Source of the DNA: Candidatus Omnitrophota bacterium
GTDB taxonomy: Bacteria > Omnitrophota > Gorgyraeia > JAGLLT01
Length of the DNA stretch: 34,380 nt
Direction of reading: 5' to 3'
Assembly: GCA_023140385.1 (NCBI GenBank)
Contig: JAGLLT010000039.1
Location: forward strand, 1-34,380
Shown here in pieces: positions 1 through 3,000 of this stretch (position 1 is the stretch's first letter; each line of letters starts with the position of its first letter). The position numbers are program-made.

Positions 1-3000
1 CAGACTGATCCGGTGGGGTATGAGGATTCAATGAACCTGTATCAGTACTGCCTGAACAATCCTCTTAACTTTACTGATCCATTAGGGTTATTTTGCTGGG
101 GAGAGTTAGCTTGGTGGGAAAAATTTGGAAAAGGATATTATTATGGAACTGGCACTGGAATAAAAGCGAGTGAATATTGGGCAGATAGATACGCAGAGAC
201 AGGAAATCCTCTATATGCTATTCCTGGAACCCTTTCTGAATCCTGGAGGCCTAAGACATTTAGAGGAACAGGCTTCACATTAATAAGTGCGGCTACGTTG
301 GGTCAAGCACCAACAAGCGCGAAGGTTAAAGTGCATCCCCCGCACCATACTTTTAAAATATTTGGAAAGAAACGAGCACTAAAACACATACAAATGGATT
401 TATGGAAAAAAGGCATTAAGGGAAGTGGAAGATCTATCCGCGTGCCATTGCCGGGAAAATAGAGTTCTAACTAAAATATAAACCTTTTATTTTTATAAAA
501 AAGCGACGATCTATGAAAAAAGAAGATTTAAAAAGAGCTTTGCTTAACGAGAAAGAAAAATATGAAAGTAAAACCTTTGATCAATTAGTTAAGATTGATA
601 AACCGGTAACCTATGAATGTGGTTCTGGAAAAGATTGGTATCAGGTTGAGATACAAGTATTAGAAAAGAACGATAAATATGTACATGTCGTTGTTTCAGT
701 AGACGATGGGAGATTGTGGCGGACTATTTTGCCGCTAACAAGCAGTTTTATAGTGTATAAAGATAAGTGAGATGTGAAAAGTAAGAAGAGTGTATATGGA
801 TAAAAAAGCTATCTATTTATTAATAGGTTTTTTTTGTTTTGCTTGCTTCCCGGTGGCATTGTCGGCGGATGAAAAAGGAGATATTGCAATGGAAGATATT
901 TTTCTAAATTTTGATTATCAGAAAAATATAGTTATAAATTCATATGTAGTTAGTGAAGAAGATATTGCTGATTTATTTAAGGAAAGTAGCGAACTAAGCA
1001 ATTTCAAGCCAAAGACCTTTTCTGAACTACAGGATAAAGAATTATTCTTGGTGTTGAAATTAAGCAATAAAGCTAACAGTGCTTTTTGGGGGATGCTTAA
1101 CTGTAAGATAGACGGGATTATAAGAGATACAAAAGTTTATTTGAATTTATGTGGAGCGCATCAAAAAACAGGTAGGTACGTGATCCCACTAAAAGAAAAA
1201 CCCGTTAATATAGATGAACAATCTATTCCAAATGTAAGCACTTCGTGGGAAAAGTTATATGTAAAATGAAACCTAAAGAACCAAAGACGCAGAGGGCAAG
1301 GACCCATTGATAAAGAAAGGTGCGGCAAGTGAATCTATCAAAGAAAAAAAGTTTTGTTTATCTATCATTTTTTATATTAATAGCGTTAACTACATATGTA
1401 AATATAGTATTTATCCGGATATCTTTTCTTAAAACAATCCAAGGAGAAAATGTAATACTTTTAATTACGTTATTGTTAATTGATTTATCCTATATGTTGA
1501 TTTTAATATTTCGAAAAGAGTGGTTGTTTAAAATGTTAAAGTATTTAATTATATTTTTTAGTTCAATAATATGCGTCGTTTTTTCTATCTTTTTCTTAGT
1601 TAGTAGTATCGGAAACTTAACAAAATCAAATATAGTATTTTTGCTATTAGTTTGTTTTTGGTTGATACTATTTTATATTTGCAATTACATATTATTTTTA
1701 AATAAGGGAATGATTATTAGGAAATAGTAAAAAGAATCAGCTTCACTTTTATCCGCCCTAATTGAACTGATTAACCCGCCAATCCGCTCACCGGTTAACT
1801 ATATATGACGGCCATAACTTTATACCCGTTAAAGCGGGAATGAGTTTAACGTGTTAATCCACACCAATTGTCCCACCTCGTAGGTGGGATGGGTTTTTTA
1901 TACTTTTTTAAAAAATAACTTGAAATTAGCTCTTTTTTCTGTAACAATGTACTCTAAATGAAAAAAGAGCGTATAGTTTTAGATACCAGTGTGTTTGTTA
2001 ATCCGGAAGCGAAATATGAATTTGGCAGGAAGCCGACCTCTGCTTTTTTGAACTTTTTGAAGCTGGCTGAGAAGGCAAAAGATGTAAGATTTTATATGCC
2101 TCCTTCGGTTTTTGATGAGTTGATGAACTTTGTTGATAGCAGTAAAATTCCGGATAAGTCTCTGCTCGCCGTACACAAAAAGGCCCCAAAAAGATATGAG
2201 CTGAAACTGCCGGCTCTTTTTCTTTATGAGCTTATTCATGATATTAGAAAAAGGGTTGATAGAGGCCTGAGGATAGCAGAGCGGGGGGTGCGCGAGGCTC
2301 AGGGGCAGGAGAAGGTGGATGATGTCATAAAGAAGCTGAGGCACAGCTACAGGGTTGCCCTGCGAACGGATACCCTGGATAGCCGGGAGGATATTGACTT
2401 GATTCTTTTGGCAAAGGAGTTGGGCGCCGCCCTGGTAACTATTGATAACGGGGTAATTCTCTGGGCGCATAAGTTAGGAATAAAGTGCCTTGAGGCTAAA
2501 GAATTAAAGAGTATTTTAGAAGGATAAACGAAAGGAATATTAATTATGACAGAAGAAAAGAACGAGCAGCAAAATGCTGAAGAAACACCGGAAGTAAAAG
2601 AACAGGAAGTAAAAGAAGTACAGCCGGCGCCGGCTGAAGAAACAAAGCCTGAGGCGGAAGAAGTCAAAGCTGAAGAAGTCAAACCGGCAGAGCCGGCAGA
2701 AGAAATAAAGCCCGAAGAAAAAACTGAAGAAAAACCTTCTGAAGAAAAGAAAGAAGAACCAAAAAAAGAAGAACCGTCAGCCGAACCTGTAGCAGAGGAG
2801 AAAAAGGAAGAAGCACAGCCCGCGCAGGAAGCTCCTAAAAAAGAGGAGCCCAAGCCGGTAGCACCCGCCAAACCGGCAGATGAGAAAAAAGGAAAAGGCC
2901 GGAACAAAATCAATAAGATGACGCTGAATGAAGTTGAGAAGAAAATTAGCGAGACCAAAGATAAGATGGGCAATTTTACTTCAAAGTACGCTCAAGCCCT

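Follow-up and report, generated by a model that had tools for sequence, protein, structure and literature searches.

A HARP-type nuclease as the probable only RNase P of an Omnitrophota bacterium and of several relatives in the class Gorgyraeia

The stretch of DNA considered here (the window, 34,380 nucleotides) is the beginning of contig C33 (C33:1-34380) in the genome of an uncultured Omnitrophota bacterium, G000, which is available as a bin of 1.495 Mb in 57 contigs that is 92.69% complete and 0.16% contaminated. On the forward strand at positions 1958-2527 lies an intact ORF of 189 amino acids with an ATG start, whose matches to protein profiles and solved structure chains mark it as a homolog of Aquifex RNase P (HARP), a PIN_5 metallonuclease that we propose as the sole RNase P of its host. 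A terminator-like hairpin of 11 pairs followed by a T run is predicted upstream on the same strand (1868-1892) from a consensus scan and reading of the sequence; it would close the preceding unit, so that the HARP gene probably opens a new transcription unit. A promoter-like site (TTGAAA, 17 nt, TG-AACAAT) is also predicted, at 1920-1948 of the forward strand, from 9 of 12 consensus matches, which is a weak indication since 12 such sites were found in the region and 6.7 were expected from shuffles. The site ends 10 nt upstream of the HARP ATG, ahead of which no Shine-Dalgarno motif is visible on reading the sequence, and a message transcribed from it would be leaderless or nearly so. A small Glu/Lys/Pro-rich ORF of 161 amino acids (2546-3031, forward strand) starts 19 nt after the HARP gene; no Pfam family was found for it, and its C-terminal 38-40 residues were detected by tblastn beside HARP in five of the six loci of the order that were examined. 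It is followed by rnhB, the gene for RNase HII (3104-3970, forward strand; PF01351, 131.6 bits), which is a conserved downstream neighbor of HARP in five of these six loci, the sixth ending early at the end of its contig. The comparison shows that within the order HARP has been inherited vertically in the conserved synteny HARP-ORF-rnhB.

HARPs are PIN_5 metallonucleases of ~21 kDa whose activity requires homo-oligomers, from dimers up to dodecamers; in the relatives whose structures have been solved, one dimer holds the elbow of the tRNA and the Asp cluster of another cuts the 5' leader. The protein encoded in the window has the expected single-domain architecture (full-length PIN_5/TIGR03875 within a family size of ~190-210 amino acids), covering positions 1-201 of the 205 in the PF08745 (PIN_5) profile with 193.3 bits and reaching 194.5 bits with TIGR03875, for which the cut-off is 95.3. 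Its best match among solved chains is 7e8k (PbHARP; 205.3 bits, query 1-187 to chain 17-202), and the matched chains carry the label "RNA-free ribonuclease P". The residues D9, D141, D145 and D163 show no variation among 132 aligned HARPs; D9 corresponds to the Asp near the N terminus of PIN domains, which has a catalytic role. The other three align with Asp in 7e8k with their spacing of 4 and 18 residues preserved, which is the spacing of the catalytic D151, D155 and D173 of PbHARP. That enzyme is reported to cut pre-tRNA-His in vitro with Mg2+, and its variants D151A, D155A and D173A are reported to be dead (PMC9051087). The agreement of ORF, both profiles, structural alignment and Asp invariance bears out a preliminary description of this locus, in which a full-length HARP of 189 residues with three catalytic Asp had been noted, and it supports the view that the protein, the only PIN_5 copy in the genome, is intact and of a catalytically competent type. 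In public databases the relatives of this protein are named "RNA ligase partner protein" or "hypothetical protein", and the HARP of one class member (G141) is identical to an NCBI protein labeled "Candidatus Omnitrophica bacterium".

If this protein acts as its solved relatives do, it would be the RNase P of the cell and would cut the 5' leaders of pre-tRNAs, in place of the rnpB RNA and the RnpA protein. The genome was searched for the RNA in several ways. RF00010 and RF00011 gave no match at E<=10 and RF02357 none at all, while RF00373 yielded only noise (7.9 and 7.3 bits); a class-specific nhmmer profile built from 30 RNase P RNAs and run with --max reached no better than E 0.58. In a motif scan, the only tight pair of the two conserved blocks among the pairs listed (same strand, <=2 mismatches per block) consists of blocks 972 nt apart that lie inside a 573-aa ORF on contig C9. 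All 30 control RNAs pass a looser form of the scan. With 3 and 4 mismatches allowed, the scan returned 215 chance pairs in G000 and is uninformative there.

The protein subunit was sought as well. A six-frame search of the genome with PF00825 (rnpA) gave no match, and a class RnpA profile that recovered 6 of 6 held-out positives found RnpA in none of 14 genomes from the HARP lineages (best E 0.045). The weak matches of this profile in G045 (E 0.033), G091 (0.045), G025 (0.07) and G023 (0.32) are interrupted by stop codons or fall within long reading frames and were set aside as noise. A faint resemblance to rnpA in G007 (13.9 bits) was not accepted as RnpA; the 162-aa ORF in which it lies contains the motif LTFDDGY, and we take it to be of the polysaccharide-deacetylase type. 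A search of G000 for PRORP, another protein-only RNase P, likewise gave no match. The absence of both RNase P RNA and rnpA that had been claimed for this genome thus holds under standard and class-specific searches alike, as would be expected of a HARP-only organism, within the limits of draft bins; the genomes of the HARP lineages are all such bins and none is closed.

A further argument of the preliminary description concerned the rpmH operon on contig C24, where a missing rnpA had been taken as the scar of its loss. On the reverse strand of that contig rpmH (4289-4426) is separated by an 80-nt gap from yidD (3957-4208), after which come yidC (2288-3964) and then jag, parA and parB; dnaA, from 4812 on the forward strand, is divergent from this operon. 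There is no ORF between rpmH and yidD. A Thermus-type rnpA that overlaps rpmH in another frame was considered and rejected, since no ORF of >=90 amino acids overlaps rpmH and the six-frame PF00825 search is blank. The junction itself is real, and independent contigs from three sequencing runs, including a run that carried no flag as a possible source, bridge it without differences. It is not specific, however. The same direct succession of rpmH and yidD was found in 8 of 8 examined genomes that have an RNase P RNA and lack a PF00825 match, so that the scar is weaker evidence than had been supposed and is silent on the RNA. Moreover, PF00825 misses 39 of the 129 RNA-bearing genomes described below, and neither the missing PF00825 match nor the missing gene at the junction is therefore diagnostic by itself. 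The eight RNA-bearing genomes with this junction belong to a single clade, in which the RNA seems to have been kept without RnpA.

Further evidence comes from the distribution of the two enzymes across the class. In a sample of 151 genomes, scored for HARP over cut-off, for RF00010 at E<=0.01 and for PF00825, HARP was found in 12 and RF00010 in 129, and no genome had both. The 22 genomes without the RNA comprise the 12 HARP genomes and 10 others, 7 of which keep PF00825 (for two of the 22, G141 and G147, the status is derived from their absence among the matches listed). With the addition of G006 and 20 further genomes to the 12 of the sample, 33 HARP genomes of the class are at hand, and neither RF00010 nor PF00825 is over cut-off in any of them; in the 20 further genomes RF00010 scores no higher than 14.4 bits, and it was positive in both controls, G008 and G014. 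Four HARP genomes gave weak RF00010 matches of 11.6-14.4 bits, which were dismissed as no better than a spurious second match of 12.4 bits in the RNA-bearing G014. The mutual exclusion of HARP and RNase P RNA that had been asserted on fewer genomes is thereby upheld (RNA in 0 of 33 HARP genomes and in 129 of 139 HARP-less ones). A reciprocal distribution of this kind is predicted by functional replacement and not by an unrelated function of HARP.

One could suppose instead that these bacteria retain an RNase P RNA, in a reduced, divergent or systematically unassembled form that escapes detection, and that HARP is an accessory nuclease, the role it has in archaea and in dual-enzyme bacteria. 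There is a precedent in the type T RNase P RNA of Pyrobaculum, which once escaped detection, and all of the genomes concerned are draft bins. HARPs are reported to be dispensable where the RNP enzyme exists (PMC12439589), and in bacteria that have both, robust activity is reported for a thermophile's HARP only, those of mesophiles being weak (PMC9945441). In addition, a sister clade with the RNA and no detectable RnpA indicates that the class tolerates unusual RNase P make-ups. The blank results of four Rfam models, the class nhmmer profile and the motif scan in G000 speak against a hidden RNA, as does the score of RF00010 in its 129 positive relatives, which is 85-311 bits in all of them, the nearest families included; the RNA would have had to lose its recognizability suddenly in three separate lineages and in exact coincidence with the presence of HARP. 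Nor are 33 independent failures of assembly credible, since gaps are independent between genomes and, with ~7% missed in the background, the RNA could not go missing from 33 genomes out of 33. We regard an undetected RNA as unlikely, though of the alternatives considered here it is the one to be taken most seriously.

The tRNA genes bear on the need for such an activity. G000 has 39 tRNA genes, with 11 same-strand neighbor pairs at spacers of 3-183 nt, and a tmRNA; genes for tRNA-Ile and tRNA-Asn are absent from the assembly, and an assembled rRNA operon is probably missing too, gaps that count against the HARP-only reading. Because tRNA genes occur in tandem clusters, endonucleolytic processing of 5' ends is needed. 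This bears on the suggestion that the PIN_5 protein has some other job, the tRNA 5' ends being supplied either by some other, unknown enzyme or through transcription from +1 onward, a suggestion to which the database names cited above lend some color. Leaderless transcription cannot serve tandem tRNA genes that lie 3-27 nt apart, however, no PRORP was found that might take over the task in G000, the close solved relatives of the protein are proven RNase P enzymes, and the strictly reciprocal distribution with the RNA would be left without explanation. We consider a different function of the protein improbable.

The leaders of these tRNAs are less easily reconciled with what is described for Aquifex. 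In A. aeolicus, A is reported at position -1 in 38 of 44 pre-tRNAs; characterized HARPs are reported to cleave better and with greater accuracy where A stands at -1, and U at -1 is reported as what the RNase P RNA of E. coli handles best (PMC12439589). Four HARP genomes of the class lack such an adaptation, with 19 A among 112 leaders: A occupies -1 in 3 of 36 in G000, 8 of 33 in G060, 5 of 34 in G141 and 3 of 9 in G040, while U and C account for 24 and 9, 15 and 10, 16 and 13, and 4 and 2 of them, respectively. HARP-adapted leaders would also be expected to lack a G:C pair between -1 and 73; such a pair could form in 3 of the 36 tRNAs of G000 and in none of G060, G141 and G040, a count that is reliable only where CCA is encoded. 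RNA-bearing relatives look the same, with 18 U among 29 leaders in G041 and 18 U and 12 C among 33 in G084. The leaders of the HARP genomes are hence as if still selected by the RNA enzyme, or else their HARPs have other preferences; this profile, equal to that of RNA-bearing relatives and with no shift to A, is a point in favor of an undetected RNA. As far as the account in PMC12439589 goes, A at -1 has been described for one species only, and we regard it as an Aquifex trait rather than a proven rule for HARP-only organisms.

A phylogenetic analysis places these observations in several lineages. On an RpoB tree the HARP hosts require at least 3 changes, and an AU test rejects a single clade of HARP hosts (p 6e-59), so that the replacement in several lineages asserted earlier now stands on at least 3 separate ones: the order of G000, families f18 and f44 together, and family f35. 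Seven of the 8 genomes of the order carry HARP, and their HARPs form one clade (98 support) within which the HARP tree mirrors the RpoB tree, families f1 and f2 being separate in both. The HARP tree also indicates that HARP genes move between lineages. That mobility, and the origin of the genome as a metagenome bin, might be cited in favor of a foreign contig, that is, of contamination or a chimera that brought HARP into a bin whose normal RNase P resides on an unbinned contig. The length of contig C33 (118,680 nt) and the very low contamination of the bin argue against this, and so do the presence of HARP throughout most of the order, the f1/f2 split shared with RpoB and the synteny with rnhB; we consider a foreign origin of the contig extremely improbable. 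The swap to HARP is supported as having happened at least 3 times among the class relatives of G000. In our reconstruction, the entire order would have lost the rnpB RNA and the RnpA protein, as would, independently, at least 2 other lineages of the class.

Taking these results together, we estimate at about 85% the probability that HARP is the only RNase P of this bacterium, a reading drawn from genome comparison; that the protein cleaves pre-tRNAs in these cells and that the RNA is truly absent is what we infer. The lineages had also been described as mesophilic, a term that we do not retain, since its basis consists only of the cold-seep labels of the runs that hold the DNA and of an ordinary tRNA G+C content, which is 0.61 and does not differ from the 0.59 of RNA-bearing relatives; the runs listed for this DNA include none of RNA. 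The proteome's IVYWREL fraction of 0.4125 translates to ~51 C by a formula that is reportedly that of Zeldovich 2007, an estimate that is crude for a small AT-rich genome. There is no hyperthermophile signature in these signals, and we conclude nothing further from them.

RNase P is the textbook example of a ribozyme from the RNA world and is almost universal, and cells that have done away with it reveal how a replacement for such an essential RNA enzyme can come about. To our knowledge, only the hyperthermophilic Aquificaceae have so far been verified to live on HARP alone. The class examined here offers independent replicates of the replacement, with 33 HARP genomes in at least 3 lineages and no RNA enzyme detected in any of them. 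The cold-seep runs, the missing shift to A at -1 and the plurality of lineages challenge both the link of HARP to heat and the need for a coevolution of leaders of the Aquifex type, and these HARPs may offer biochemistry enzymes with possibly different cleavage-site preferences. The neighboring clade with RNase P RNA and no detectable RnpA may represent an intermediate or an alternative route. As a speculation that we would sooner expect to fail than to hold, the class might comprise three RNase P make-ups: RNA with RnpA; HARP alone, of at least 3 origins and active in cold surroundings on leaders with U or C at -1; and RNA whose RnpA has truly been lost, in at least 9 families (39 of the 129 RNA-bearing genomes). 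If so, the RNase P RNA of the RNA-only clade would be functional in vivo without RnpA, or else RnpA would have been replaced by an unknown protein, and the decay of RnpA might be the step that opened the door to a take-over by HARP.

HARP-only bacteria as such are already known in the Aquificaceae, and they have been hinted at for Nitrospirae and for unnamed bacteria. Aquifex aeolicus with its Aq880, and the Aquificaceae in general, resemble G000 in having a PIN_5 protein of the same size with the same Asp cluster and in lacking rnpB and rnpA, and solved chains of the Aquifex type match the HARP of G000 with 142-153 bits. They differ in belonging to another phylum, in inhabiting hot springs rather than the places behind cold-seep-labeled runs and in the leaders of their tRNAs (A at -1 in the great majority for Aquifex, U or C here); the HARP-only state in the class of G000, for its part, would have arisen at least 3 times. 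The closest solved relative, which the HARP of G000 matches from end to end, is that of "Planctomycetes bacterium GWF2_40_8" (7e8k, 7e8o), also from a metagenome bin; it is reported to form a dimer in vitro and to bind tRNA with micromolar affinity (PMC9051087). Thermodesulfatator indicus and other bacteria with both enzymes are presented in PMC9945441 as the presumed transition state before loss of the RNP, a dual state that was not sampled in the class, in which HARP occurs over the cut-off in 0 of 129 RNA-bearing genomes and the RNA in 0 of 33 HARP genomes. The HARPs of T. indicus, Aquifex and M. thermautotrophicus have reportedly been used to complement an E. coli strain (BW) depleted of rnpB. 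Daniels et al. 2019 (PMC6380272) report HARP without RnpA outside the Aquificae in genera of Nitrospirae and in unnamed "unclassified bacteria", and some of the latter may belong to the lineages described here; as reported there, that survey tested for the RnpA protein and not for the RNA, whereas in the present class the absence of RnpA is an unreliable guide. Finally, PRORP is also a PIN-like metallonuclease that replaces the ribozyme, with two Asp that are reported to superpose on those of HARP (PMC9051087), but it is a monomer with PPR and NYN domains and of independent origin.

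The open reading frame (ORF) at 1958-2527 (+) starts with ATG and encodes a protein of 189 aa that matches the Pfam family PIN_5 with 193.3 bits (profile positions 1-201 of 205) and the NCBIfam model TIGR03875 with 194.5 bits. Seven distinct solved sequences described as 'RNA-free ribonuclease P' match it as well, the best being PbHARP, the HARP (Aquifex RNase P homolog) of 'Planctomycetes bacterium GWF2_40_8' (PDB 7e8k; 205.3 bits, residues 1 to 187), whose Asp residues opposite D141, D145 and D163 have the spacing of PbHARP D151, D155 and D173. Passages of the report on PbHARP describe Ala mutants of these three residues as inactive (PMC9051087). 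In our alignment of 132 HARPs, D9, D141, D145 and D163 are invariant, and with the scores quoted here this bears out the preliminary description of a full-length HARP that retains its catalytic Asp residues. We put at roughly 85% the probability that the product is a HARP-type protein-only RNase P and the sole RNase P of the organism. Public records name its relatives 'RNA ligase partner protein' or 'hypothetical protein'.

The genome that carries the window (G000; 57 contigs totalling 1.495 Mb, completeness 92.69%, contamination 0.16%; the window is the first 34,380 nt of contig C33, which has 118,680 nt) gave no match to RF00010 or RF00011 even at E<=10, only 7.9 and 7.3 bits with RF00373, nothing with RF02357, and no match to PF00825 (RnpA) or to PRORP, the other protein-only RNase P. 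Thirty RNase P RNAs from the class Gorgyraeia served to build an nhmmer profile, whose best E with --max over the whole genome was 0.58. A scan for two blocks conserved in all 30 of these RNAs, with up to two mismatches in each, gave a sole same-strand pair among the matches listed, 972 nt apart and within a 573-aa ORF. The absence of rnpB and rnpA claimed at the outset is thus upheld by the Rfam and Pfam models, the class profile and the motif scan. Assembly of this bin does recover small RNA genes, as 39 tRNA genes and a tmRNA show; the genes for tRNA-Ile and tRNA-Asn are missing, for which reason the rRNA operon is probably unassembled. Eleven neighbouring tRNA pairs lie on the same strand with spacers of 3-183 nt, and tandem genes so spaced require an endonuclease that makes the tRNA 5' ends.

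Among 151 genomes sampled from the class, HARP scores over the cut-off in 12, RF00010 at E<=0.01 in 129 (the gathering score being exceeded in 125) and PF00825 in 97, and no genome combines HARP with RNase P RNA. The 22 RNA-less genomes, which include G141 and G147 as absent among the RF00010 matches listed, are the 12 HARP genomes and ten others; seven of these ten retain rnpA and are therefore likely to be assembly gaps, the remaining three being G072, G078 and G131. A phylum sample of 401 genomes contained 31 with HARP, all marked 'same class', namely 3/3 in family f1 (including G000) and 2/2 in f2, the two families of its order, 6/7 in f18, 17/17 in f44, two in f62 and one in f35. Twenty HARP genomes not covered by the earlier counts showed no RF00010 match over 14.4 bits (controls G008 and G014 gave 170 and 167 bits) and no PF00825 match over the cut-off, which brings to 33, with G006, the HARP genomes that have neither RNase P RNA nor rnpA. 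It might be supposed that the RNA is present in these genomes and merely unassembled, but assembly misses would be independent between bins, and 33 misses in a row against a background rate of 10/139 make this not credible; mutual exclusion of HARP and the RNA, as first proposed, holds in 33 of 33 cases. In G072 (f46) and G003, which are 84% and 85% complete, none of HARP, RNase P RNA and rnpA was found and the rpmH-yidD junction is present; both are probably HARP-only genomes with the HARP gene in an assembly gap. One f44 genome, G397, has two HARP matches of identical score on the same strand of its contig C1 (49224-49784 and 55917-56477), 6.7 kb apart, which reflect either recent duplication of the gene or a repeat in the assembly.

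In an RpoB tree built from 30 genomes (987 columns, LG+G4, SH-aLRT), the class divides into two clades with support of 100. The first includes the majority of the RnpA-positive families, together with G000's order (f1 and f2, monophyletic, 100) and the f35 HARP genome G040, paired with G072 (98); in the second, f6, a family with a divergent RnpA, is sister (97) to the HARP clade of f18 and f44 (100), alongside a nine-family clade (88) that has RNase P RNA and no detectable RnpA. The HARP label changes at least three times on well-supported branches, and a tree constrained to unite the ten HARP hosts, a group fixed before tree building, is worse by 191 log-likelihood units (AU p 6e-59; 1e-8 with G072 added). 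HARP has accordingly replaced the ribozyme at least three times in the class, in keeping with the several lineages of the preliminary description; we read the changes as at least three losses of RNase P RNA because regain of the RNP enzyme is implausible. An unrooted tree of 13 HARPs from these genomes and 119 of 120 listed database proteins (P0012, at 148 aa, was too short) unites the HARPs of f1 and f2 (98) as sister (93) to those of f18 and f44 (98), whose hosts belong to the other major RpoB clade. The f35 HARP falls elsewhere, near metagenome proteins, and other clades bear the names Scalindua, Nitrospirae and Thermodesulfovibrionia. At least two arrivals of HARP in the class and a transfer inside it would account for this topology; alternatively, HARP is old and was lost many times. 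Within the order of G000 the two trees agree, and rnhB and a small conserved ORF accompany HARP in 5 of 6 loci; inheritance there is vertical.

On contig C24 of G000, rpmH (4289-4426, -), divergent from dnaA (+), is separated from yidD (3957-4208, -) by 80 nt without an ORF, with yidC (-), jag, parA and parB beyond. Contigs of three runs, among the first four examined (all from one cold-seep study), bridge this junction without difference, one of the three not being flagged as a possible source, so that it is not a misassembly. Loci for rpmH were sought in 30 class genomes and matched in 25. In all six PF00825-positive genomes (G008, G010, G011, G015, G026 and G041) an ORF of 94-156 aa lies between rpmH and yidD; yidD follows rpmH directly in seven HARP genomes (G001, G005, G023, G040, G060, G091 and G117), in G003, of the genus of G000, and in G072 and G131, in which neither HARP nor RNA was found, while in the HARP genome G002 the locus runs into a contig end and is not readable. 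The same direct arrangement occurs in 8/8 genomes with RNase P RNA and no PF00825 match (loci L143, L146, L147, L150, L151, L152, L160 and L164 of G036, G033, G014, G084, G042, G012, G009 and G025, respectively). The operon scar described earlier is thus genuine as a junction without rnpA, but it is not specific to HARP genomes.

Of the 129 RNA-bearing genomes, 39 give no PF00825 match, among them all those of families f4, f7, f9, f20 and f28. A class-specific RnpA profile, built from six ORFs between rpmH and yidD and searched in 32 genomes, recovered 6/6 held-out positives (E 4e-22 to 9e-9), 0/14 genomes of HARP lineages (best E 0.045) and 0/11 genomes that have the RNA and no PF00825 match (best E 0.033, in a hit interrupted by stop codons). 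By this measure the HARP genomes are indeed without a recognisable RnpA, but so is a group that keeps the RNA. That group spans at least nine families with normal-scoring RNase P RNA (137-239 bits), and 9 of its 10 members included in the RpoB tree form the one clade, G046 (f41) standing apart. Its RnpA has either been relocated and diverged past recognition or is really gone, and RNA without RnpA, if true, would be a more surprising observation than the unadapted leaders described below. RnpA matches are weak, at 30-39 bits against the 60-94 usual in the class and often limited to profile positions 40 to 108 or less, in f6 (G011, G081, G109, G133) and f10 (G015, G054, G112, G136, G085); in parts of the class, RnpA seems to be undergoing decay.

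The tRNA leaders provide the chief evidence against the HARP-only reading. In the sections consulted of Davydov et al. 2025 (PMC12439589), three HARPs are faster and more accurate after A at -1, A. aeolicus pre-tRNAs have A at -1 in 38/44 and a G:C pair beside the cleavage site in none, and E. coli RNase P RNA handles U at -1 well and A poorly. We read the base before each ARAGORN tRNA gene, excluding tRNA-His; for the five relatives only listed genes were read (150 listed, 52 not), so that their counts are samples. Position -1 is U 24, C 9, A 3, G 0 in 36 genes of G000, against the 38/44 A of Aquifex. The other HARP-only genomes gave U 15, C 10, A 8, G 0 (G060, 33 genes), U 16, C 13, A 5, G 0 (G141, 34) and U 4, C 2, A 3, G 0 (G040, 9). 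All four are without a shift to A and resemble the RNA-bearing G041 (U 18, C 2, A 5, G 4; 29) and G084 (U 18, C 12, A 3, G 0; 33). The lack of a shift may instead signal that cleavage-site recognition in these HARPs is unlike that of the three assayed so far. Bases -1 and 73 could form a G:C pair in 3/36 tRNAs of G000 and in none of G060, G141 and G040. The 3' CCA is encoded in 35/36 tRNA genes of G000, and in 16/33, 13/34 and 4/9 of the other HARP-only genomes versus 21/29 and 14/33 of the RNA-bearing ones; it does not track HARP. At C9:2071-2227 (-) of G000, tRNA-Arg(tct) lies 3 nt from tRNA-His. The latter has an encoded G-1 facing C73, and its base -2 is U instead of the A of Aquifex; it would offer a demanding natural substrate for locating the cut of this HARP.

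The region 1700-4300 is almost wholly present in four runs of one cold seep metagenome study, three of them possible sources, and one run from another study, likewise labelled cold seep, contains 0.24 of the region's sampled words. The host is likely not thermophilic: the temperature estimated from a crude proteome index is about 51 C, and tRNA G+C is 0.58-0.61 in HARP-only versus 0.59 in RNA-bearing genomes.

No Rfam family and no tRNA was found in the window. Downstream of HARP, 2546-3031 (+) encodes a Glu/Lys/Pro-rich protein of 161 aa without a Pfam family, whose last ~40 residues are conserved and which in this order always lies between HARP and rnhB; co-transcription with HARP is possible. 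At its start the window cuts into an ORF, after which come four small ORFs without Pfam families (region 1-462, 513-770, 790-1269 and 1320-1727, all +), one beginning like a signal peptide and another strongly hydrophobic. The end of the opening ORF is reminiscent of Rhs/YD-repeat proteins, where the core ends and the variable tip follows, and these ORFs may be a putative polymorphic-toxin tip with immunity-type genes.

No open-licence or bioRxiv full text that we searched joins Omnitrophica or Omnitrophota with HARP, protein-only RNase P or RNase P. In the relevant passages of Daniels et al. 2019 (PMC6380272), which take the RnpA protein as criterion, HARP alone is reported for a few genera of Aquificae and Nitrospirae and some 'unclassified groups of bacteria', and in the abstract of Gossringer et al. 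2023 (PMC9945441), on five bacteria with both enzymes, only the HARP from a thermophile is robustly active. The HARP-only state is already a known kind, to which the present case is a well-replicated addition, and its value is raised by leaders that are not adapted as in Aquifex and by a neighbouring clade with RNase P RNA and without detectable RnpA.
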